From a virus (Duplodnaviria; Caudoviricetes), in the IMG/VR virus record IMGVR_UViG_3300044709_000096, positions 1 through 27,531 of that record: DNA of 27,531 bases; one strand, written 5' to 3'. A program made the position numbers and the translations under genes. A model generated the notes under the pieces. It worked only from the letters and a program-made list of their open reading frames with translations. It was not told the origin of the DNA and made no database searches. Positions 30 to 27,531 of the stretch are shown here, one piece after another (position 1 is the first letter of the stretch; every line of letters starts with the position of its first letter).

Positions 30-1445
30 GTGACGCCGTACTCCCTGGCTGATTTCACCCGGTTCTGCCGCCAGCTGAGGACCGAGGCCGGCAAGACCCT
101 GGTCCTTCAGGCGTTCCAGCGCCGGCTCCTGGCTCCCTATTTCCGGGGGACCCGGGAGACGGTGATCGTGCTGCCGACCGGCAACGGCAAGACGACCCTG
201 CTCGCGGCGCTCGCGGTCTATCACATGCTCCGCGTGCCGAACGCCCAGGTGCTGATCGTGGCCTCGGCGGCCGACCAGGCGGCGACGCTGTTCAAGCAGT
301 GCCGGATCCTCATCCAGGACTCGCCGCTCGAGGTGCTCCTGGACGTGAAGAACGGCATCCGGGCGATCTACCACAAGGGGGAGGGGCCGAACCGCCGCCG
401 GGCCGGGGAGATCCGGGTCATCGCCTCGGAGGTCGGCAAGCAAGAGGGGGCCATCCCGACCCTGGTCCTGGTGGACGAGCTCCATGCCCATCACGACCTG
501 GCGATGTACGAGATGCTCCGGGACAAGCTGTGGAAGCGCGCCTCAGAACGAGGCTGCGGGCGGATGATCGCCATCTCCACCGCCGGTTTCACGTTCAACA
601 GCCCGCTCTACAAGCTCCGCGAGACGGTCATCGAGCTCCCGACCTACAAGCGCCGAGGTCCGATGTGCTCGGCGACGGGTCCGGGGTTCTCCTGGCACGA
701 ATACGCGCTCGACCCCGACCAGGACCGGGACGATCTCAGTCTTGTGGTGAAGGTCAACCCCGCGCCGTGGGTGACCAGGAAGGCTCTCCAGGCACGGAAA
801 TCCTCCCCGACGATGAGTCCGGGGGAGTGGGCACGGAGCGCCTGCAACGTCTGGACCGCCGGCGCCGAGCAGCCCATCAAACCTGAGGAGTGGGACCGGC
901 TCCGGGTGGACATCGGAGCGATCGAGGACGGCGAGCAGGTCATCCTGGTCCCTTCGGTCGGGCACAACGCCGCCATCGGCATCGCCGCCGAACGCTCGGA
1001 CGGCCGGGTGGCGGTGCGCGCCGAGATCCTTCCGGCCGAGGAGACCGGCTCGACTTTGATCCGAACCGAGGACCGGATCCTCGAGCTCTGCAAGCGCTAC
1101 GACGTGCTCGGGGTCCATCACCCATTGGGGGCGTTCATCCGTTCGGCCGATCTTCTCTCGGGCGAGGGCGTGCCGATGGTGGAAGCCCCGCACTCGGTGA
1201 CCAGGCTCTCGGCGGCGTCGGGGACGTTCAACCGGATGCTCCGCTCGGGACTGTTGATGCACGACGGCGACCCTGAACTGCGCGCCCATGTGCTCTCGGC
1301 GACGCTCAAGACGAACGAGGCCGGCGAGCGCTATGAGATCTCGGACAGGGCGCGGGCGCTGATCGCGCTGGTGATGGCGGTCCACGCCGCGACCGTGTTC
1401 GAGCCTGAGCCCTACATCGGGCTCCCTTCGGAGGGGATCGGATGA
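30..1445 (+). CDS. terL: Terminase large subunit (ATPase motifs present, nuclease acidic residues apparently absent)
   Basis: Walker A LPTGNGKT, Walker B VLVDE, coupling motif ISTAG, C-terminal 'HDGDPEL..HV' and 'ALVMA' patterns of HK97-like TerL; directly upstream of portal. Confidence 0.93.
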   Translation: MTPYSLADFTRFCRQLRTEAGKTLVLQAFQRRLLAPYFRGTRETVIVLPTGNGKTTLLAALAVYHMLRVPNAQVLIVASAADQAATLFKQCRILIQDSPLEVLLDVKNGIRAIYHKGEGPNRRRAGEIRVIASEVGKQEGAIPTLVLVDELHAHHDLAMYEMLRDKLWKRASERGCGRMIAISTAGFTFNSPLYKLRETVIELPTYKRRGPMCSATGPGFSWHEYALDPDQDRDDLSLVVKVNPAPWVTRKALQARKSSPTMSPGEWARSACNVWTAGAEQPIKPEEWDRLRVDIGAIEDGEQVILVPSVGHNAAIGIAAERSDGRVAVRAEILPAEETGSTLIRTEDRILELCKRYDVLGVHHPLGAFIRSADLLSGEGVPMVEAPHSVTRLSAASGTFNRMLRSGLLMHDGDPELRAHVLSATLKTNEAGERYEISDRARALIALVMAVHAATVFEPEPYIGLPSEGIG

Positions 1446-2626
1446 GCTTCAAGGACTGGTTCGCCTCCAAGCCCGACATGGAGTTCGAGATCACCGTCCC
1501 CCCGGAGATGCGCGAGGGGATGACCTTCGGCGGCACGATCGCCCCGAGGATCTCGCGGACCGAGGCTCTGCAGGTCCCGGCGGTCCTTCGCTCCCGCAAC
1601 CTCATCGCGGGGACCCTTGCCCGCCTGCCGATCCATATCCGCGACAAGGATCGCAATATCGCGTCACCCACGACCTTGCTCGACCAGATCGACCCGGACA
1701 TCCCCAACGTCGTCACGGTCGCCAACACGTACGAGGACTTGCTGTTCGAGGGCATCTCTTGGTGGCGGGTGCTGGAGTTCGGCTGGCACGACTACCCGAC
1801 CTTCGCCGAGCACATCAGTCCCAACCGTGTCCACGTCCAGGGGTGGATCCCTCCGGTGAACGGCTCGAGCCCGTCGAACGCGGTAGGACCGGCTCGCGTC
1901 TACATCGACGGTTATCCGGTCAACGACAACCAGGTCATCCGGTTCGACTCGCCCAACCCGCCGCTCCTGGTCCACGCCGCGCGCGCGATCCGAACCTGCC
2001 TCACGCTGGATAGGACCGCGGCCGGGTACTCGGACCAGCCCATCCCTCTCGGGTACTTCACGCCGAAGGATGGGTTGCGCCCGAAAGAAGACGACGCCTC
2101 CGTGGGGACGCTGCTGGACCGGTGGGAAGCCGCTCGGTCCCGCAGGGTCTACGGCTACGTCGGGGCGGCGTGGGAACTCAAGACCCTGCAGTTCAACGCC
2201 GAACAGATCCAGCTCGCCGAGCAGCGCCAACACGCGGTCCTGGAGATCGCCCGAGCCGCAGGGATCGACCCCGAAGACCTAGGGGTCTCCACGACTTCTC
2301 GGACGTATCAGAACGCCGAGCAGCGGCGGTTGGACCTGGTCGACTTCACGTTCGCGCCGTACATGAGCGCCATCGAGCAACGCCTGTCGATGCGCGACGT
2401 CCTGCCCAGGGGCTACACGGCCAAGGTCAACCTGGACGGGTTCCTGCGCGGCGACACGAAGACGCGGATGCAGACCTACGAGATCGGCAAAGGCGTCGGC
2501 GCCTACACCGAGGACGAGATCCGCGAGCTCGAGGACCGGCCGAACCTCACGCCGGCCCAACGTGCGAGGAACGCCCCACCGGCCGCGATGCCGGCGCAGC
2601 AACCGCAGACCCAGGAGGCCACATGA
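1442..2626 (+). CDS. Portal protein (HK97 family)
   Basis: ALQVPAV..SRNLIAGTLARLP, EIARAAGIDP, YQNAE, IEQRLS, DEIRELED motifs; ATGA overlap with terL. Confidence 0.95.
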   Translation: MSFKDWFASKPDMEFEITVPPEMREGMTFGGTIAPRISRTEALQVPAVLRSRNLIAGTLARLPIHIRDKDRNIASPTTLLDQIDPDIPNVVTVANTYEDLLFEGISWWRVLEFGWHDYPTFAEHISPNRVHVQGWIPPVNGSSPSNAVGPARVYIDGYPVNDNQVIRFDSPNPPLLVHAARAIRTCLTLDRTAAGYSDQPIPLGYFTPKDGLRPKEDDASVGTLLDRWEAARSRRVYGYVGAAWELKTLQFNAEQIQLAEQRQHAVLEIARAAGIDPEDLGVSTTSRTYQNAEQRRLDLVDFTFAPYMSAIEQRLSMRDVLPRGYTAKVNLDGFLRGDTKTRMQTYEIGKGVGAYTEDEIRELEDRPNLTPAQRARNAPPAAMPAQQPQTQEAT

Positions 2627-4419
2627 CCGACGAGACGAGGATCACCTTCGCCGAGGACGAGACGGTCTCGGCGTCGTTCAGCGCGGATGTGGAACGCCGG
2701 ATCATCGGCGGCATCGTCGTCCCTTGGGGCAAGGTGGCCCGGTCGGGCTTCGCCAAGTGGCGCTTCGCTAAGGGCTCACTGCGCTGGGCCGACACCCGGC
2801 GCGTCAAGCTCAACATGAACCACGACCACACGCAGCCCATCGCGTATGCGTCGCGCCTGCACAACACGGTGGATGGGCTGGAAGCGACGTTCAAGGTGGC
2901 TCGCGGGGAGGAGGGTGATAAGGCGCTGGCATTGGCCGAGGACGGTGTCCTCGATGGCTTCTCCATCGAAGTGGACTTCGATGACGGAGATGGCTGGCAG
3001 CCCGATCCCGACGACGAGGATGTCCGACTGGTAACGCAGGGCCGACTGGCGGGCGTCGCGCTCACCGGCTTCCCGGCGTTCGACGACGCTCGAGCGGACC
3101 GCGTTGCGGCGGCTCGGCAAGGAGGAATGATGACAGAGGACTTGAAGAACCCGCAGGGGGTGGACGAGGAGCCGATCGACTTCGAGGCGCACCTGTCCGC
3201 TCTCGCCGACCGGGTTGCGAAGAACCAGGAGGAGTTCCTGGCGCAGTTCGGCAAGGGCGTCACCGAGACGCTGGACGCCAGCATCCGCACCACGCTGGAG
3301 AACATCGGCTCACCGGAGCAGGGGCCGGCGACGGTCAGGGCGGCGCGGTACTCCACGCTCAAGGAGCCGTCGGTCTACACCTTCGACGGCCGCGGCGATT
3401 CGCTCGTCCGGGATGCATGGGCGGCGGCTCGCGACCACGACGAGGACGCGATCCATCGGCTCCGCAAGTTCCGCGCACAGTCCGAGGACATGGCCGAGGT
3501 GGTCCACCACGCGGTGAACTTCGCGCCGCAGACCACCACCACGGCCGCGTCGATCATCCCTCCCGGCTACCGGCCCGACCTATATGTGTCGGACCTGTTC
3601 CGCCAGCGGCCGCTGGTCAGCCTGGCGTCGCAGGGGACGATCGCCAACGCCACGCCGTTCACCGTGCCGAAGTTCAGCTCGGTCACGACCGGCTCGGCGA
3701 CCCACGTGGAGGGCACGAACCCCTCCGACGGTGCGCTGGCGTTCACGCCGCAGGTCGTGACGCCGCAGGCCATCTCAGGGCGCATCGTGCTCACCCGTGA
3801 GATCGTGGACTCCTCGAACCCGGCGATCGACCAGATCGCGTTCGCCGAGATGCGGGAGTCCTACGAGCGGCAGACCGAGACGATCGTCTACACGCTGCTG
3901 AACGGCGCGAACGGCGCCGGCGGCACGATCACCTCAGGGTTCGTTCCCTCCGGTGCACAGGCGGTCACCACGGCCGGCGGTACGGACAACCAGACGCTCG
4001 TTAAGGCGATCCGCAAGGCCGTGGCGGACTACTGGTTTGCGCGGTTCGCCCCTCCGACCGGCGCTGCGATGGGCCAGGGTGCAACGGCAAGGCTCGCCCA
4101 GGCGTTTGACACCACACAGCGTCCGCTGTTCCCCTGGACGGGTGGCATGAACGCAGCCGGCGTGGCGAACCCGCCAGCGGCCGGCTACCAGGTCGATTCG
4201 CTCACGTTCCAGCCGGCCTGGGCGATGACCGGGGTTGCGGCAGGTGACTCGCAGATGTTCCTGATCAAGGCATCGGACCTGTGGGTCTGGGAGTCGCCGC
4301 TGCTCACGTTCCGGTTCGAGGAGAAGCAAGGCCCGGCCAACATCGAGCTGAACATCTTCGCCTACTTCGGTACGGCGCTGATCCGGCCGGTGGGTCTGTC
4401 CGGGATCCGCATCACGTAG
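2623..4419 (+). CDS. Fused prohead protease - scaffold - major capsid protein (598 aa)
   Basis: ATG 2623 after AGGAGG overlaps the portal stop. N-terminal HK97-type protease motifs (NHDH, DGVLDGFSIE, PAF) are followed in frame by a capsid-like region (EG...P...L.F, SRE-like TREIVDSSNP). Confidence 0.9.
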   Translation: MTDETRITFAEDETVSASFSADVERRIIGGIVVPWGKVARSGFAKWRFAKGSLRWADTRRVKLNMNHDHTQPIAYASRLHNTVDGLEATFKVARGEEGDKALALAEDGVLDGFSIEVDFDDGDGWQPDPDDEDVRLVTQGRLAGVALTGFPAFDDARADRVAAARQGGMMTEDLKNPQGVDEEPIDFEAHLSALADRVAKNQEEFLAQFGKGVTETLDASIRTTLENIGSPEQGPATVRAARYSTLKEPSVYTFDGRGDSLVRDAWAAARDHDEDAIHRLRKFRAQSEDMAEVVHHAVNFAPQTTTTAASIIPPGYRPDLYVSDLFRQRPLVSLASQGTIANATPFTVPKFSSVTTGSATHVEGTNPSDGALAFTPQVVTPQAISGRIVLTREIVDSSNPAIDQIAFAEMRESYERQTETIVYTLLNGANGAGGTITSGFVPSGAQAVTTAGGTDNQTLVKAIRKAVADYWFARFAPPTGAAMGQGATARLAQAFDTTQRPLFPWTGGMNAAGVANPPAAGYQVDSLTFQPAWAMTGVAAGDSQMFLIKASDLWVWESPLLTFRFEEKQGPANIELNIFAYFGTALIRPVGLSGIRIT

Positions 4420-10731: not shown

Positions 10732-11022
10732 CTACACCTGGATGACGACCTCGCAGCTCTGAGCCTTGTCGGTCGAGGTGACGTAGCAGACATCGCGCCC
10801 CGATCCTCCGCGGAGCAGGTCCGAGCCAGGCCCGCCGTAGATCGTGTCGTTGCCGGCGTGGCCGAGCAGCACGTCATCCCCGTAGCCGCCGTGGATCTCG
10901 TTCGATCCCTGGGTGCCGATGATGACGTCGTCTCCACCGCCGCCTGAGATGCCGAGCGCCGGCGAAGCCACAGCGACGCTCAGAGCGAGTGTCGCTGCGA
11001 TGGCGAGCAGGTGTCGCCTCAC
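10732..11022 (-). CDS. Secreted RTX/hemolysin-type calcium-binding repeat protein (96 aa)
   Basis: GTG after AAAGGAG; signal peptide MRRHLLAIAATLALSVAVASPALG; GGxGxDxL/I nonapeptide repeats; C-terminal C..D..SCE. Confidence 0.85.
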   Translation of the reverse strand: MRRHLLAIAATLALSVAVASPALGISGGGGDDVIIGTQGSNEIHGGYGDDVLLGHAGNDTIYGGPGSDLLRGGSGRDVCYVTSTDKAQSCEVVIQV

Positions 11023-11053
11023 GATGGGTCTCCTTTCCCCTTCAGCCACGCCC

Positions 11054-11083
11054 ATCGTGGACCTGCGGCGTCCCGAGTGTCAA
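11054..11083 (-). promoter_or_regulatory. Sigma70-type promoter for the RTX gene
   Basis: TTGACA-18 nt-CACGAT on the minus strand. Confidence 0.6.
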
Positions 11084-16819: not shown

Positions 16820-17019
16820 AAGGACTCTGCGAACACACCGACCACATCGGCGACAGGTTAGTAGACCGCCGAGACCTCACCGAACGCCGCCTCGAGTTCC
16901 GCGACCTCACCTCGCAGAATCGGTATCGAACGAAGGTCCTGGACAGGACGTGCAAAGCCTGTGTCCGGCGTGAGCTCGCCGAGCCGGCCGATCCACGTCA
17001 GGCGGCGCTGTCGCTGTGA
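16816..17019 (+). CDS. Hypothetical protein (C..H...CxxC)
   Basis: GTGA overlaps on both sides. Confidence 0.6.
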   Translation: MKGLCEHTDHIGDRLVDRRDLTERRLEFRDLTSQNRYRTKVLDRTCKACVRRELAEPADPRQAALSL

Positions 17020-17399
17020 GCCTCTCCTGTCCTCACTGCGGAGGCGAGGTACACGTCTCGCTGAGCCCGGCGCCTACGACCGACAACGAGATCGCACGGC
17101 GGTTGCTCGAGAAGCAGCGACCCTGGTCCGTCGTCGGAGCCGATGATAGGGCAGGGCAGTTGGCATATCGGCGGAAGCCGGTGGTCTACGCGCTGCTTGG
17201 CGACCGCGACGAACTGCTCTACATCGGAAAGTCCCAGGAACCGACCTGGCGGTGGCAGCAGCATCGACGGCTGCGCCCATGGTGGGACGCCGTGCAGCAG
17301 ATCGCCGTGCTGGTGATGAGCGACAGCCGCTCGGCGTATGTCACCGAGCAGCGTCTGATCCGGCAGCTCCAACCTCAACACAACATCCAGGGGCGCTGA
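17016..17399 (+). CDS. GIY-YIG nuclease family protein
   Basis: VVYAL...LLYIGKS...RWQQH...E..LI....P.HN. Confidence 0.85.
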   Translation: MSLSCPHCGGEVHVSLSPAPTTDNEIARRLLEKQRPWSVVGADDRAGQLAYRRKPVVYALLGDRDELLYIGKSQEPTWRWQQHRRLRPWWDAVQQIAVLVMSDSRSAYVTEQRLIRQLQPQHNIQGR

Positions 17400-18061
17400 T
17401 GGGCTGGGTCAAGCTCGACGACGGCTTCCCGACCCATCCGAAGGTGGTCGGCCTATCCCTCGAGGCTCGCTGGGCGTACATCGAGAGCCTCTGCTACGCC
17501 GCGAAGTACGAGACCGATGGAGTGATCCCGGACGTTGTAGCGCCGAACGGATTGGTTCGCGAGGCTCTCCTCGCTGCTGGTCTGTGGGAGAGCGGAAGCG
17601 CGGCAGTCCAGGTCCATGACTTTCTGGTCTACAACCCTTCCAAATCCGAGAAGGAACGGAAACGAAACGTTTCTCGCACGGTTCGAGCATCCCGTGAAGG
17701 GGAGGGGATTGGGGAGGTTGCAGGGGGTGGGGGTCTGGGGGAGGGGGAGTCTGCCTTCGCCGCGTTCTGGGCTGCCTATCCACGCAAGGTCGGCAAGCCG
17801 CGTGCTCGAGTCGCGTTCCTGAACGCGATCCGCCGCGTCTCGGCTGAGGCCATCATCGCCGGCGCGAAGCGGTACGCCGAGGACCCCAACCGCTCGGACG
17901 AGTTCACGGCGCACCCGACGACGTGGATCCACCGCGACGGCTGGGAGGACCCACCGGAGCCTCCCCGATCGCAGCGCGGCGCTCGGCGCCCGCCCGACCC
18001 GCCGCGTCCCTACGACCCCGCGCTCGCCGAGATCGAGATCGAGAGGGCACGCCGTGGCTGA
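17399..18061 (+). CDS. Replication initiator protein
   Basis: MGWVKLDDGFPTHPK N-terminus, 'HDFL.YNPS', and C-terminal 'F..FW.AYPRKVGK...HPTTW....WED' domain. Confidence 0.85.
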   Translation: MGWVKLDDGFPTHPKVVGLSLEARWAYIESLCYAAKYETDGVIPDVVAPNGLVREALLAAGLWESGSAAVQVHDFLVYNPSKSEKERKRNVSRTVRASREGEGIGEVAGGGGLGEGESAFAAFWAAYPRKVGKPRARVAFLNAIRRVSAEAIIAGAKRYAEDPNRSDEFTAHPTTWIHRDGWEDPPEPPRSQRGARRPPDPPRPYDPALAEIEIERARRG

Positions 18062-18484: not shown

Positions 18485-19119
18485 GGGTACTCGATCTGTT
18501 CGCCGGTCTCGGAGGCTGGTCGGCGCCGTTCGCCGAACGCGGTCACGAGGTCGTGACGGTGGATGTGGAACCGACGTTCGGCGCGACGCTGACAGCAGAT
18601 GTGCTTTCGGTGGGTCCTCACTTCGGACGGTTCGATGTCGTGCTCGCATCACCGCCCTGCGAGTCGTTCTCGGTCGCGAGCATCGGGACGCACTGGATGG
18701 GAGGACTCAGGGCCTACGAGCCTCGCACGGCCCAGGCGCATACGGCGATAGCTCTGGTTCACTGGACCCTCGCGGCGATCGAGTGTATGCGCCCGTCGGT
18801 CGCGATCATCGAGAACCCGCGCGGGATGCTGCGCCGTCTCGGCATCCTGGATCGCTACGAGCGGGTGACGGTCACCTACTGCCAGTACGGCGACACGTCG
18901 ATGAAGCCGACCGACCTATGGGGTCTGCCCTTCCCTGCGTCGTGGCAGCCACGAGCGATGTGCCGCAACGGTGCGTCGTGCCATGAGTCGGCTCCGCGTG
19001 GTGCGAAGACCGGAACCCAAGGCAAGGTCGGCGCCGCGGAGCGAGCAGTCATCCCGTACGAGCTCGCGCTGTCCGTGTGTCTCGCTGCCGAACGTGACGC
19101 GACGAGGGCGATCGCGTGA
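18481..19119 (+). CDS. DNA cytosine-C5 methyltransferase (short, orphan)
   Basis: Motif I LDLFAGLGG, motif IV SPPC, motif VI IENP, 'YCQYG...KPT'. Confidence 0.88.
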   Translation: MRVLDLFAGLGGWSAPFAERGHEVVTVDVEPTFGATLTADVLSVGPHFGRFDVVLASPPCESFSVASIGTHWMGGLRAYEPRTAQAHTAIALVHWTLAAIECMRPSVAIIENPRGMLRRLGILDRYERVTVTYCQYGDTSMKPTDLWGLPFPASWQPRAMCRNGASCHESAPRGAKTGTQGKVGAAERAVIPYELALSVCLAAERDATRAIA

Positions 19120-19424
19120 AGCGCTCAGCCGCCGACATCAGGTTCTCGCGCCAGATCCGCGAACGCGACCACTGGACCTGCCAGCGTTGCAAGCAACGTC
19201 ACGCCGAGAACTCCCGAGGGCTGCATTGCGCGCATATGTTCACCCGAAGGACCGGCGCGACCAGGTTCGACCCGGACAATGCCTGTGCTCTTGACTACGG
19301 ATGCCACCAATACCTGGATTCGCACCCGGCCGAGAAGCTCGCGTTCTTCAGGGCGCTGTTGGGTGACGAACGCTTCGACGCTCTGGCGGCGAGGTCACAC
19401 GCGAAGCGGGATCGAGTCGCATGA
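19116..19424 (+). CDS. NinG/Rap-like HNH nuclease
   Basis: FS..IRERD..TCQRC...LHCAH...R...TRFD.DN..AL...CH. Confidence 0.8.
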   Translation: MKRSAADIRFSRQIRERDHWTCQRCKQRHAENSRGLHCAHMFTRRTGATRFDPDNACALDYGCHQYLDSHPAEKLAFFRALLGDERFDALAARSHAKRDRVA

Positions 19425-21783: not shown

Positions 21784-21858
21784 ACTAGGTTCAAGAAATG
21801 CCCCGGCGCTGTTTGCGCAGCCCGGGGCGTGGCCGACAGCCTGTCAGGACTGCCGACA
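21781..21858 (+). promoter_or_regulatory. -10 box and structured leader of the EndoVII gene
   Basis: TAGACT, then hairpin GCCCCGG..GCTG/CAGC..CCGGGGC (21800-21828); GCCGACA occurs twice. Confidence 0.45.
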
Positions 21859-22311
21859 ATGGAGCAACCTAGCATCCCGGGCCTTCCGGCCGAAGCACGC
21901 CGCGTCTGCCCTGGTTGTGCCCGGACCCTGAACGCATCGGACTTCCACCGGGCCAGTCCCTACTGCCGATTCTGTATGAGGTTCCAGTTCGCCTTGCGAC
22001 GCGCGATCAGCTACAAGGGCTGGCTGGCGAAGCAGGACGGCGTTTGCGCTCTGTGCGGTCGTGAACCGTTGCTGGGCAAGCGTCTCGACATCGACCACGT
22101 TCATGTCGCGCCGGACGAGCGGGATGGGTTCGTGGACATCCGAGGGCTGCTGTGCTCGCGCTGCAATCTGCTGGTCGGCGCTCTCGAGTTGCAACCCGAA
22201 CTACTGGATCGGGCTCGGGCCTACCTCGCCGCCCAGCCCACGCGGGTCTATCTCCCGGTCGTGCGGACGAACAGACGGCATCCGGCGGGCTCGCATCGGC
22301 GTAACCGGTGA
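21859..22311 (+). CDS. Endonuclease VII family protein
   Basis: Q.G.CALC...L.IDH.H...IRGLLC..CN...G...L.RA.AYL; N-terminal CxxC..CxxC. Confidence 0.9.
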   Translation: MEQPSIPGLPAEARRVCPGCARTLNASDFHRASPYCRFCMRFQFALRRAISYKGWLAKQDGVCALCGREPLLGKRLDIDHVHVAPDERDGFVDIRGLLCSRCNLLVGALELQPELLDRARAYLAAQPTRVYLPVVRTNRRHPAGSHRRNR

Positions 22312-24351: not shown

Positions 24352-24786
24352 GTGCGAATCTGCACCGAGGACGGATGCGATAGGAAGCATTACGGACATG
24401 GTCTGTGCCGGCTTCACTACGGCCGGGAACGGGCAAAAACGCATCCTGATAAGAGAATACCCACCGCTGCTGCCCGCTCGGCCTCGAACCGTCGCTACCG
24501 CCTAAGTGGGAAGAAGGCGGCTGCGCTAGCACGCCAGCTGGCGCGAGGTGTGCAGATCCAGTCCTGGTCCGACCATCACAACGCGATGGCGGTTCTCAAG
24601 GGTTCGCGCCCTGAAGGGATGACCTTGTCACTTGTGAACCCGGATAGCCCCTCGGCTTACACCGGGTACGGGTACTACAACGGTCGCCGTTGTCCGTATC
24701 GGCTATCGACCGACCCCGACGACTATGTCTGGGAATCCCAACTCGACAACATGCATCGGGGGCAGCCGATGCGCGCGGCAGTTTAG
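24352..24786 (+). CDS. Divergent HNH-like homing endonuclease
   Basis: N-terminal C-x4-C...GLC..HY finger; C-terminal 'PEGMTL...STDPDDY..ES..DN..RG'; lower GC3 than neighbours. Confidence 0.6.
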   Translation: MRICTEDGCDRKHYGHGLCRLHYGRERAKTHPDKRIPTAAARSASNRRYRLSGKKAAALARQLARGVQIQSWSDHHNAMAVLKGSRPEGMTLSLVNPDSPSAYTGYGYYNGRRCPYRLSTDPDDYVWESQLDNMHRGQPMRAAV

Positions 24787-25870: not shown

Positions 25871-26833
25871 ATGGCGCGGCGGGAATACTTCCGCGTCCCC
25901 AAGCGAAGCCGGATCATCTGGTTCGCCTCGGCCAACGTCGTCACGACCGTCGATGTTGCGGGAAGCATCACTTGGACCGGTGCGACCGACGTCGTCCTGG
26001 TCGCGACCACCAGCATCCCCAAGGTAAACCGGCGTCGGCGGCGCAAGCCCAAGCGCATCGTCCGCGGCTCACGCATCGCCCGATTCACGCCGCTCGCCAA
26101 CGTCATCAGCAACGTCGACGTCCAGGGGCAACTCCTGTGGACGGGCCAGTCCGTAGCGCTGGTTCTCAACGTCGCCCCAACGGCAGGGGCGATCACCTGG
26201 CAGGGCTCGAGCATCACCCTTGCCTTCGGTGTCACCCCGACTCCAGGCCAGATCACCTGGAACGGCGCCACCGACATCCTGCTGGTTGCCACGACCAGCA
26301 TCCCGCGCTTCAACCGCAGGCGGCGCCGCAAGCCGAAGAAGATCGTCCGCGGCTCCAGGATCCAACGCTTCACGGCAGTAGTCCCGGGCGTCACGAACGT
26401 CGACGTCGCAGGGCAGATCACTTGGACCGGCCAAGACCTACCGCTCAGGTTCACCATCCCCATCACGGCGGGGCAGGTCACCTGGTCGGGGCAATCGGTC
26501 GCGCTGGTCCTCGGGACCACCCCGACGGCCGGAAGCATCACCTGGGCAGGCCAAGCCCTCCCACTGAGCACGAAGATCGGTGTCACCGCAGGGGCGATCC
26601 TGTGGGCCGGCGCAACGGACATCGTGCTCATCGCCACCGGCGGACCTCCTCCAGGCACGCCGGTGGAGTGCCCAGACGCCGACCTCATCGGCGCAGAGGC
26701 CGAAGCACTTCTGTCTCAGGTCTTCGGCGCCGCTCTGCTCTCTGGCACAGAGGGAAACAGCGTCCTGACCAGCACGAATGGAGACGCCGTCCTGGTAGGT
26801 ACCGAAGGACAGGCCACGACGAGGGAGTGCTGA
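25871..26833 (+). CDS. Repeat-rich fibre scaffold-like protein
   Basis: 8 x G-x-[ILV]-[TL]-W-x-G repeats, two RRRRRKPK inserts, C-terminal 9-aa repeats. Confidence 0.75.
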   Translation: MARREYFRVPKRSRIIWFASANVVTTVDVAGSITWTGATDVVLVATTSIPKVNRRRRRKPKRIVRGSRIARFTPLANVISNVDVQGQLLWTGQSVALVLNVAPTAGAITWQGSSITLAFGVTPTPGQITWNGATDILLVATTSIPRFNRRRRRKPKKIVRGSRIQRFTAVVPGVTNVDVAGQITWTGQDLPLRFTIPITAGQVTWSGQSVALVLGTTPTAGSITWAGQALPLSTKIGVTAGAILWAGATDIVLIATGGPPPGTPVECPDADLIGAEAEALLSQVFGAALLSGTEGNSVLTSTNGDAVLVGTEGQATTREC

Positions 26834-27132
26834 TGAACCTCAAGCAGGGCGACCTCGCACCCAAGCTGACGATCGACCTGAACGCCGACGTCACCGGCGC
26901 CACGTCCAAGGTCATCAAGATGCGGCGTATCCACGACACCACCATCGTGACCAAGACCCTGACCGTGGTGGATGCCCCGACCGGCGTGCTCGAGTACCAG
27001 TGGGTCGCCCCAGACACCGATACCCCAGGCACGTACCTGATCGAGGCTGTCATCACCTTCGCGAGCGGGGCCATCGAACGCTTCCCCCAGCGCTCCTACC
27101 TCGAGCTGGTCATCAAGCCCAAGGTCGGCTGA
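26833..27132 (+). CDS. BppU-N-like adaptor protein
   Basis: M.LKQGD..P.L...DVTGA...G.LEYQW...DTD.PG.Y..E...TF..G..E.FP; TGATG overlap. Confidence 0.75.
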   Translation: MNLKQGDLAPKLTIDLNADVTGATSKVIKMRRIHDTTIVTKTLTVVDAPTGVLEYQWVAPDTDTPGTYLIEAVITFASGAIERFPQRSYLELVIKPKVG

Positions 27133-27151: not shown

Positions 27152-27531
27152 ATGCAGAAACAAGGGGTGGGGGGTCGAAGGGCCTGCATCTGCGGCTCCA
27201 TGAACTGCAGGCACAAACGGCGTAGGGGGGGTACCTCCTACGGAGCAGACCACCAGGCACGGCGTAGCACCATGCTGGTCTCTACCCCCGAGGTGTGTGC
27301 TCGGTGCGGTCAAGGACCCAGGCCCGATGACCCTTGGGAAGCAGGGCACACCCACCCCCGTGCGCTGGGTGGAGGCCCTGAGGTACGCCGAGAACATCGA
27401 AGTTGCAACCGGAGGGCGGGTGCCGTGCTAGGCCAGATGATGCGACAGGCTCGGCGTGGTGATGGTGATCGGGAACTCGGCGAACTCGAACGGCGTTTTT
27501 TCCCACGCAACACCAAGAGACCTCTCAGCGG
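27152..27531 (+). CDS. HNH endonuclease; continues across the end junction to stop at 31-33
   Basis: CICG..C.H, YGADHQARR, CARCG...WEAGH..P...GG....EH.SCNRRAG. The frame is open to the window end and closes at TGA 31-33 after merging the 8-bp overlap (134 aa). Confidence 0.88.
   Translation, partial: MQKQGVGGRRACICGSMNCRHKRRRGGTSYGADHQARRSTMLVSTPEVCARCGQGPRPDDPWEAGHTHPRALGGGPEVRREHRSCNRRAGAVLGQMMRQARRGDGDRELGELERRFFPRNTKRPLS
27524..27531 (+). repeat. 8-bp terminal direct repeat CTCAGCGG (right copy)
   Basis: Identical to bases 1-8. Confidence 0.85.

Follow-up and report, generated by a model that had tools for sequence, protein, structure and literature searches.

The window examined here, 27,531 bases in length, is the whole of IMG/VR virus record IMGVR_UViG_3300044709_000096, which is classed as linear, has a CheckV completeness of 98%, and is a complete linear genome. 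At its left end it encodes a large terminase subunit (TerL) whose ATPase motor is conserved and whose nuclease-like domain has lost all of the acidic residues of the canonical active site. Immediately before this gene, across the joined genome ends, lies a gene for an HNH endonuclease. In textbook tailed-phage packaging, one enzyme, TerL, both cuts and pumps DNA. The reading that we favor, to which we would give a probability of about 0.6, is that in this virus the HNH protein makes the cuts at the cohesive-end site (cos) and TerL is a motor without a nuclease role.

The terL gene and the parts of its product that bear on this reading are located as follows.

30 to 1445, + strand: terL, the large terminase gene; 471 amino acids (aa) from a GTG start, stop codon included in the coordinates
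30 to 890, + strand: ATPase (motor) domain, residues 1-287
174 to 197, + strand: Walker A motif, PTGNGKTT, residues 49-56
462 to 485, + strand: Walker B motif, LVLVDELH, residues 145-152
573 to 587, + strand: coupling motif, ISTAG
897 to 1409, + strand: nuclease-like domain with an RNase H-like fold, residues 290-460, without the catalytic carboxylates
939 to 974, + strand: former metal site 1 in strand beta1, VILVPSVGHNAA, residues 304-315; S309 and N313 replace two Asp
1113 to 1127, + strand: former metal site 2 at the end of strand beta4, VHHPL, residues 362-366; H364/P365 at the former place of the Asp
1344 to 1367, + strand: former metal site 3, D439-R-A-R442-ALIA; a deletion of 3-4 residues ahead of A443 takes out the Asp of 'PID' at the N terminus of the last helix

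In a Pfam search the terL product matched TerL_ATPase (PF03354) above the cut-off (E = 2e-12), whereas its match to TerL_nuclease (PF20441) was confined to the last 74 residues and stayed below the cut-off, at 15.2 bits compared to 24. For most members of the clade described below, PF03354 was the only Pfam assignment. PHROG 9 (terminase large subunit) covered residues 9-460 of the window protein with an E value of 3.6e-53. An AlphaFold2 model of this TerL, built on an alignment of 104 rows, had a mean predicted local distance difference test score (pLDDT) of 93.3 and a predicted template modelling score (pTM) of 0.82, and the best match to it found by Foldseek in the PDB was the TerL of phage HK97 (E = 4e-19). 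Judging from this model, both the RNase H-like nuclease fold and the ATPase motor are retained in the window TerL; the Walker A, Walker B, and coupling motifs were found to be equally conserved in TerLs with and without the canonical nuclease residues.

The fate of the catalytic residues was evaluated in three independent alignments. A MAFFT alignment was made of 104 full-length homologues, which remained from the 120 of 158 matches that were listed after 16 shorter rows had been dropped. In this alignment the distant members read GvDiG...D.tA, YDPW.F, and PIDALIA at the three sites, whereas the window and most other rows read VPSVGH-NA, HHPL, and R---ALIA. The catalytic residues of HK97 TerL are given as D302, D388, D471, and K463 (PMC9410871), and by our own count the numbering of chain 6z6d in the PDB is offset by 10 from D388, D471, and K463 of that source. 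When the clade was aligned to 6z6d with HMMER, the HK97 segment 'FDRW' fell on 'HPLG', so that D388 corresponds to P365, and the HK97 'RID' that carries D471 was an insertion relative to the clade. Finally, a profile of 90 canonical C-terminal nuclease domains (C-domains) matched the window TerL with an E value of 1.8e-27, with 'GvD' and 'rkiD' falling in gaps and the Asp of 'fDpw' aligned to P365. No acidic residue was found at any catalytic position in any of the three alignments; the alignment of the middle site is ambiguous by one residue, being either H364 or P365, and both are non-acidic.

The replacements are uniform among relatives. At the column of S309, Asp is present in 100% of the 90 canonical relatives and Ser in 100% of the 77 clade members that have a PSxG motif, and at the column of N313 the corresponding values are 93% Asp and 94% Asn. 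By alignment, the canonical two-metal nuclease site is absent from the window TerL, and N313 marks a fourth acidic ligand position that has also been lost. In the secondary structure that DSSP assigned to the model, strand 303-310 has S309 at its end, strand 358-364 has H364 at its end, and the last helix (442-456) begins with R442; taken together with the alignments, these would be the three Asp-bearing places of RNase H-like terminase nucleases. An earlier note on this DNA had proposed, from an alignment by eye, that the acidic motifs are replaced on an otherwise intact TerL scaffold, and had suggested a check against TerL nuclease profiles. The results above bear out that alignment and the intact scaffold, and the residue numbers in the note are exact on the 471-aa open reading frame (ORF) from the GTG at 30 (for example, HDGDPEL at residues 411-417 and RARALIA at 440-446).

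To place the window TerL among its relatives, the 104 homologues were pooled with full-length TerLs read from the fetched loci, giving 208 unique sequences, which were aligned with MAFFT --auto. All three scored Asp were kept in 90 of these and none in 81; an acidic residue was present only near the middle site in 32 (in part of which it is a Glu, one or two positions off), the third Asp alone was lost in 4, and one sequence was odd. Therefore at least two of the three scored Asp are missing in 113 of the 208 relatives, with the N313 position tallied separately. A HMMER scan with the C-domain alone against 1.84 billion representatives at 50% identity gave 399 matches at E <=1e-3, of which 68 were at 1e-10. 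Among the best 150 of these 399 matches, 124 cover the four acidic columns; in 83 of the 124 all four are retained, and in 41 one or more are missing, including 15 in state xxxx, 8 in state xxDx, and 4 in state DxDx. The graded states DxDx, xxDx, and xxxx all share the loss of the third Asp, which would be consistent with the other ligands decaying once catalysis had ceased.

The losses were found to be concentrated in one group. In a FastTree phylogeny of the C-domain, all 113 degenerate sequences fell in one clade with a support of 0.81 (0.999 at the parent node), and L098, L135, and L140 formed a separate small lineage with an independent partial loss. An IQ-TREE quick run on 81 sampled rows and 139 columns, from which the three trait segments had been removed, gave the same picture. 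The sample consisted of 22 PSxG sequences, 20 other degenerate sequences plus P0108, the L098 group, and 35 canonical sequences, with the remaining 127 left out; all 43 degenerate rows formed one clade with an SH-aLRT (Shimodaira-Hasegawa-like approximate likelihood ratio test) value of 96, the L098 group stood apart (99), and eight canonical sequences were the nearest neighbors of the degenerate clade. These trees are quick-mode trees on short alignments. Because the loss of the Asp residues is common to the clade, the window copy is not a private defect, and the concern in the earlier note that this copy might simply be defective can be set aside. The ratio of nonsynonymous to synonymous substitution (dN/dS) in unsaturated pairs was 0.13-0.43 for the dead C-domain relative to 0.06-0.22 for the ATPase domain; the dead C-domain is relaxed yet clearly under purifying selection.

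A tree of whole-length TerL sequences was rejected. In it, the PSxG forms were split and a canonical group was nested within the degenerate clade; it is misleading because the two TerL domains have different histories; domain-wise trees were used instead. The window and L092 proteins are 40% identical in the ATPase domain and 71% in the C-domain, and for L088 and L092 the values are 44% and 81%. In the ATPase tree the degenerate C-domains occur on at least two ATPase lineages, which indicates that the dead domain has been shuffled and points to recombination at the TerL domain boundary.

The genome ends and the HNH gene were then considered together, as they occupy the same DNA.

27152 to 27531, + strand: HNH endonuclease gene, main part, residues 1-127 of 134; the ORF runs off the 3' end; PHROG 1808, E = 1.9e-4
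27515 to 27531, no strand: right genome end, cos region (about AGAGACCTCTCAGCGG); the last 8 nucleotides (nt) are repeated at 1-8
1 to 33, + strand: 3' end of the HNH gene after end joining; its stop TGA (31-33) overlaps the terL GTG at 30 (GTGA)

The first 8 bases of the record are identical to the last 8 (CTCAGCGG; 1-8 and 27524-27531), forming a terminal direct repeat; we estimate that an end-to-end match of at least 8 nt would arise by chance with a probability on the order of 1e-5 to 1e-4. Merging the ends on the shared 8 nt lets the HNH ORF be read from the ATG at 27152 through 134 aa to the stop TGA at 31-33, and the start of terL lies 29 nt from the genome end. A 4-nt overlap of the HNH stop and the terL start is also present in natural contigs that cross the junction, namely L002 (TTGA), L007 (ATGA), L092 (GTGA), and L093 (ATGA), and by direct reading no Shine-Dalgarno-like purine run was visible in the 20 nt before terL. 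Because of the merged-end ORF, the 4-nt overlaps, and the absence of such a purine run, the defined genome ends, and with them the predicted cos, fall within the 3' portion of the HNH gene, which is intact only on joined DNA, and the translation of terL is most likely coupled to that of the HNH gene. The translationally coupled upstream HNH gene proposed in the earlier note is supported in this respect by the merged ends of the window and by the four contigs, with the correction that this arrangement is formed only when the two ends of the linear record are joined.

Evidence on the position of the ends was obtained from 25 distinct contigs with a degenerate TerL, a count that includes the window and takes L086 and L003 as one contig. 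In 10 of the 25, a contig end lies 21-63 nt upstream of the terL start, several of them at a homologous motif. The closest relatives end within about 10 nt of this motif: the window and L004 at CTCAGC, L003 5 nt earlier, and L005 and L006 8-9 nt earlier than CTCAGC. This clustering of contig ends points to physical DNA ends. The junction is traversed, on the other hand, by contigs L002, L007, L018, L090, L092, and L093, and contigs that run through an end-to-end junction indicate that joined forms exist. In run X1, the Logan contigs reach as far as 27519 and resume at 2, and none of them bridges the junction; this run is probably the window's own source, and such contigs cannot show the ends of molecules.

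These observations bear on whether any site-specific cutting is needed. The genome might replicate as linear unit-length molecules, as in phi29, where the production of unit-length genomes is given as the reason why the nuclease domain of the packaging ATPase is catalytically inactive and vestigial (PMC13595956), or the window TerL might be a defective relic. No integrase was seen in the window among the ORFs scanned with PHROGs and Pfam, which would suit a genome of the phi29 kind. Such explanations seem highly improbable, however, given the contigs that run through the junction and the 8 nt common to both ends; moreover, no protein-primed polymerase or terminal protein was matched by PHROGs and Pfam in the approximately 50 ORFs scanned. 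A defective relic is excluded by the clade-wide conservation together with a dN/dS below 0.45, and neither the CheckV completeness nor the full head-tail module of the window is in keeping with it. The likeness to phi29 gp16, in which the dead nuclease remnant is reported to bind DNA (PMC13595956), is limited to the vestigial domain of a packaging ATPase.

Several other features of the junction were observed. A T-run, 'GTTTTTTCCC', that lies some 40 nt upstream of the right end is conserved in the window (27480-27531 and 1-33), L002, L007, L018, L090, and L092, and in the same six sequences either 'AGCGATTTCCCGCC' or an A-run, 'GGGAAAAAAAG', is found just before the terL start. These features of the end-flanking DNA are conserved even where the encoded HNH tail differs, and the T-run and the AGCGATTTCCCGCC/A-run may be recognition or bending sites for the terminase or the HNH protein. 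A palindrome at the cut site (GAGAnnTCTC, noted by eye) was dropped because it is short and is not conserved in L092 and L007. Two relatives have an Endonuclease VII gene between the genome end or the HNH gene and terL (L006:62-547, Pfam E = 4e-21; L094:509-1120), which looks like a homing-type insertion.

The surroundings of terL were compared in loci with at least 600 nt of upstream sequence, with the terL starts of L007 and L156 set by hand. A small terminase subunit (TerS) was sought in the window with PHROGs (E 0.001 on about 50 ORFs, and E <=0.5 on 19 unassigned ORFs), Pfam, and a six-frame search with a TerS profile built from 12 upstream genes of relatives, and none was found. A profile of the canonical C-domain, run against all six frames of the window for a second TerL-type nuclease, matched terL only, and no other ORF in the window is long enough to encode a TerL. 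Among the 10 loci with a degenerate TerL, 7 have an HNH gene within 150 nt of terL and no TerS, 2 have an HNH gene 151-1500 nt upstream and no TerS (at 421 and 596 nt, with small ORFs or Endonuclease VII between), 1 (L088) has a TerS-profile match at the terL start, and there is no other arrangement. Among the 51 loci with a canonical TerL, a TerS-profile match at the terL start was found in 27, of which 13 also have an HNH gene 151-1500 nt upstream (the HK97 order); an HNH gene without TerS was found within 150 nt in 3 (L037, L044, and L107) and at 151-1500 nt in 5, and 16 have neither an HNH gene nor a TerS match. Other TerS families, such as Pfam Terminase_4 in L033, were not counted as TerS matches, and because relatives share states by descent, these counts describe a pattern and not independent events. 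The gene order is HNH, genome ends, terL, portal, and protease-capsid in the window, and it is the same in relatives. Since L107 belongs to the canonical sister group, the abutment of HNH and terL without TerS seems to be older than the loss of the Asp residues.

In the HNH protein of the window, with residues counted by hand on the translation, we recognize a zinc knuckle (C12/C14/C19/H21), a CxxC pair (C49/C52), the catalytic H66, an H82/C85 pair, and N86 as the last metal ligand. An alignment of 13 terL-linked HNH proteins, canonical members included (alignment A3), was used as a profile against solved structures and matched a group II intron maturase (5e-8), Cas9 (1e-7), the Gme HNH nickase 4h9d (4e-6), and the GVE2 HNH protein 5h0m (8.5e-5). 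A database search with the A3 profile returned 107 proteins, of which by our own reading 101 contain PF01844 and 6 have no Pfam domain; a database search with the single L007 HNH sequence found nothing. The catalytic His is invariant in A3, in which an N-terminal Cys/His knuckle is common, and among the 43 core motifs listed, the CxxC and (H/C)xxC pairs and the final N/H metal ligand are found repeatedly. An AlphaFold2 model of the L007 HNH protein had a mean pLDDT of 66, with 71-92 for the core residues 50-120, and the order strand-strand-helix is compatible with the beta-beta-alpha-Me fold. Foldseek with this model gave nothing below E 0.3, 4h9d being ninth at E 1.1, and a prediction of the complex of L007 TerL with its HNH protein (alignments A4 and A3), run without controls, gave a score of 0.00, which carries no weight for or against binding. 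Phage HNH enzymes encoded beside cos and terminase genes are described as site-specific nickases that often have an extra N-terminal zinc ribbon (Xu and Gupta, PMC3592412).

A number of points weigh against the HNH protein as the cutter, and the first of these concerns TerL itself. E433 and R442 are conserved in 100%, E430 in 91%, and D439 in 90% of the 77 PSxG clade members and are variable in the 90 canonical relatives, and in the model these residues lie in the beta-hairpin 426-435 and in the loop before the last helix, beside the old site. D439 is the residue that the earlier note had entered as a caveat to its alignment, and the caveat is a real one. Such conservation, together with the purifying selection on the C-domain, would be expected if TerL still cut through a remodelled site in which E433, D439, and E430, perhaps with H411, H420, or H452, bind metal, the HNH protein being a helper as in HK97. 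We regard this as quite unlikely, because the beta1 Asp that is invariant in 90 of 90 canonical relatives is a Ser and the second is an Asn, a classic inactivating swap, and because the graded decay of the ligands is expected after catalysis is lost and not when a new site is being built. The conserved Glu, Asp, and Arg residues may instead be salt bridges that fill the emptied pocket.

The second set of points concerns the HNH protein. Pfam HNH (PF01844) gave no match at E 0.01 for the window or the L007 protein alone. In addition, a 3-residue deletion (GGGPEV---RREH) takes out the middle Asn of the H-N-H triad in 7 of the 7 HNH proteins encoded beside PSxG-type TerLs (the window, L002, L007, L018, L090, L092, and L094), whereas 36 of the 36 other HNH proteins in the fetched loci keep the 10-residue spacing and 35 of them have the Asn; the HNH protein of L110, which is outside the set captured by the pattern, is also short-spaced. 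It appears from these sequences that the HNH partner changed together with TerL, and the Asn-less HNH protein could itself be impaired. The earlier note had named this HNH protein as the obvious cutter: its abutment of terL with a 4-nt overlap stands, and that it does the cutting is something that we infer.

The third set concerns the genomic context. The close linkage of HNH and terL is not specific to the loss of the Asp residues, as the canonical loci L037, L044, and L107 share it, and TerS proteins are hard to detect, so that the absence of TerS remains unproven. In L088 (L088:1-1701), the degenerate TerL is 52% identical to that of the window and has a TerS-like gene directly upstream, as well as a large methylase-like ORF, with no HNH gene within 1.67 kb. 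The link between Asp loss and HNH-terL coupling, which the earlier note had suggested testing, holds for the 9 of 10 degenerate loci in which HNH is the first recognizable gene upstream of terL and TerS was not found, and it fails to be exclusive in the 3 of 51 canonical loci and in L088. Cohesive ends, for their part, are predicted indirectly, from the 8-nt repeat and the clustered contig ends.

Lastly, the window encodes three further proteins of nuclease families known for junction resolution or homing.

17016 to 17399, + strand: GIY-YIG domain gene (PHROG/Pfam)
19116 to 19424: NinG/HNH-like gene (PHROG/Pfam)
21829 to 22311: Endonuclease VII gene (Pfam, E = 1.6e-12)

One of these, or a host enzyme, might cut the genome ends, with the terL-adjacent HNH protein serving for homing or nick relief. 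The Endonuclease VII genes between cos and terL in L006 and L094, the missing Asn of the terL-linked HNH protein, and the absence of an HNH gene near the degenerate terL of L088 would all be accommodated in this way. It is unlikely in our view, since the candidates in the window lie in the early region, far from cos, and Endonuclease VII occurs at the junction in 2 loci only, whereas the HNH gene alone is syntenic and, as it appears, translationally coupled with terL across the clade.

We therefore return to cutting by the HNH protein, for which the following sequence of events may be proposed. Joining of the genome ends, in a circle or a concatemer, would restore the full HNH gene, which would be read together with terL. 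The HNH protein would bind TerL, as reported for HK97 gp74, and would use its N-terminal zinc knuckle and basic tail to recognize cos. It would then nick both strands in a staggered manner, either as two copies or in two successive events, while the pseudo-nuclease domain of TerL would only hold DNA and dock on the portal, and the ATPase would translocate DNA from the terL end towards the HNH end. In a fuller form, which we put forward tentatively as a possibility, the clade would have a two-protein machine without TerS, in which an Asn-less zinc-knuckle HNH protein recognizes cos and makes both staggered nicks and the TerL pseudo-nuclease domain is a DNA clamp and docking platform; this state would have begun with the small deletion of the third TerL Asp, after which the other residues decayed and the dead domain was shuffled onto at least two ATPase lineages.

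The systems closest to that of the window are the gp1/gp2/gp74 module of HK97 and the HNH-dependent cos phages of staphylococci and lactococci. HK97 gp2 (PDB 6z6d) is the best match to the window TerL in both sequence and structure, the window has an HK97-type portal, prohead protease, and capsid and defined genome ends, and in both, cos and the terminase genes are directly preceded by the HNH gene. In contrast, the window TerL has lost all of the catalytic residues D302, D388, and D471 that HK97 TerL possesses (PMC9410871), and in HK97 gp74 does no more than stimulate cleavage. In HK97, TerS (gp1) is encoded between cos and terL, whereas in the window none was found and the HNH gene overlaps the terL start; and cos lies inside the HNH coding sequence in the window, unlike in HK97. 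For the staphylococcal phages phi12 and phiSLT and the lactococcal Skunavirus sk1 (HrdP), a terminase-adjacent HNH protein is stated to be required for packaging (PMC12967558, citing Kala 2014 and Quiles-Puchalt 2014), and in the current model given for HNH-dependent cos phages, HNH makes one nick and TerL makes the other (PMC12967558). These phages keep TerS and, as far as reported, an active TerL nuclease, whereas the window TerL is unable to make the second nick by way of the canonical site. The HNH nickases of the N.phiGamma group with a zinc ribbon (PMC3592412) are likewise small, have their genes beside cos and the terminase genes, and combine an additional N-terminal zinc site with a CxxC...CxxC/H core; as described there, they carry the full H-N-H triad, whereas the clade variant, the activity of which is predicted, is Asn-less through the 3-residue deletion. 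Thus the window is set apart from HK97 and the HNH cos phages by the dead TerL site, the undetected TerS, the location of cos in the HNH gene, and the Asn-less HNH protein. A full-text literature search found no description of a nuclease-deficient TerL paired with an HNH protein; subscription journals were outside this search, and a prior description is possible.

The remainder of the genome, which has about 66% G+C across the window, is organized as follows.

1442 to 2626, + strand: portal gene, overlapping the terL stop by 4 nt; Pfam Phage_portal, E = 3e-33; PHROG 12, E = 1.9e-36
2623 to 4419, + strand: prohead-protease/capsid fusion, a single ORF of 598 aa; Peptidase_S78 at residues 27-160 and Phage_capsid (HK97-type) at residues 322-532
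after the capsid gene, + strand: head-tail connectors, major tail protein, chaperone, tape measure, other tail genes, and a holin-like gene
between the tail/holin block and the early genes, leftward: a helix-turn-helix repressor-like gene
early genes: single-strand annealing protein, GIY-YIG, replication initiator, C5 methylase, NinG/HNH-like protein, and Endonuclease VII
17252 to 18061: replication-initiator ORF, the start of which is overlapped by the GIY-YIG ORF
right part: several genes of unknown function, a repeat protein, and a small immunoglobulin (Ig)-like protein, then the terminal HNH-like ORF running off the record

The repeat protein (with units like 'AITWAGQ') and the Ig-like protein of about 100 aa, which ends '...FASGAIERFPQRSYLE..', are encoded at 25871-27132 on the + strand. 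They were always found immediately upstream of the HNH gene at the far right genome end (in the window, L007:3-2259, and L090:2-2044), with a beta-helix-like ORF of 413 aa between them in L007, and may be tail-fibre-like, oddly distant from the tail block. The ORF at 24352-24786 on the + strand matches HNH PHROG 5351 over its first 35 residues only, and this ORF and the GIY-YIG ORF at 17016-17399 may be remnants of homing endonucleases. Within the tail block, an ORF on the minus strand (10732-11055) has RTX calcium-binding nonapeptide repeats (Pfam HemolysinCabind, E = 7e-19); it may be a real leftward gene or a reverse reading of a Gly-rich repeat.

The one sequencing run found to contain the window sequence is a soil metagenome. 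Cultured phages in the GenBank phage collection have a TerL identity of 26% or less, the best being phiC31 with 25.5%, and the distant relatives with a canonical TerL are prophages in metagenome-assembled genomes of Solirubrobacterales, Acidimicrobiia, Gaiellaceae, and other Actinomycetota. The clade is diverse, with dozens of clusters at 50% identity and no cultured member, and its proteins are currently annotated simply as 'terminase large subunit', which leaves a gap in annotation.

Why some cos phages need an HNH nuclease in addition to TerL is called still obscure in a 2026 paper (PMC12967558), and this clade is a natural experiment on that question. Its TerL can no longer make the canonical nick, yet the genome ends are defined, so that either both cuts are the work of the HNH protein alone or a new chemistry has arisen in the RNase H-like domain. 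In both cases the answer would show how the nuclease and motor functions separate in viral packaging machines.

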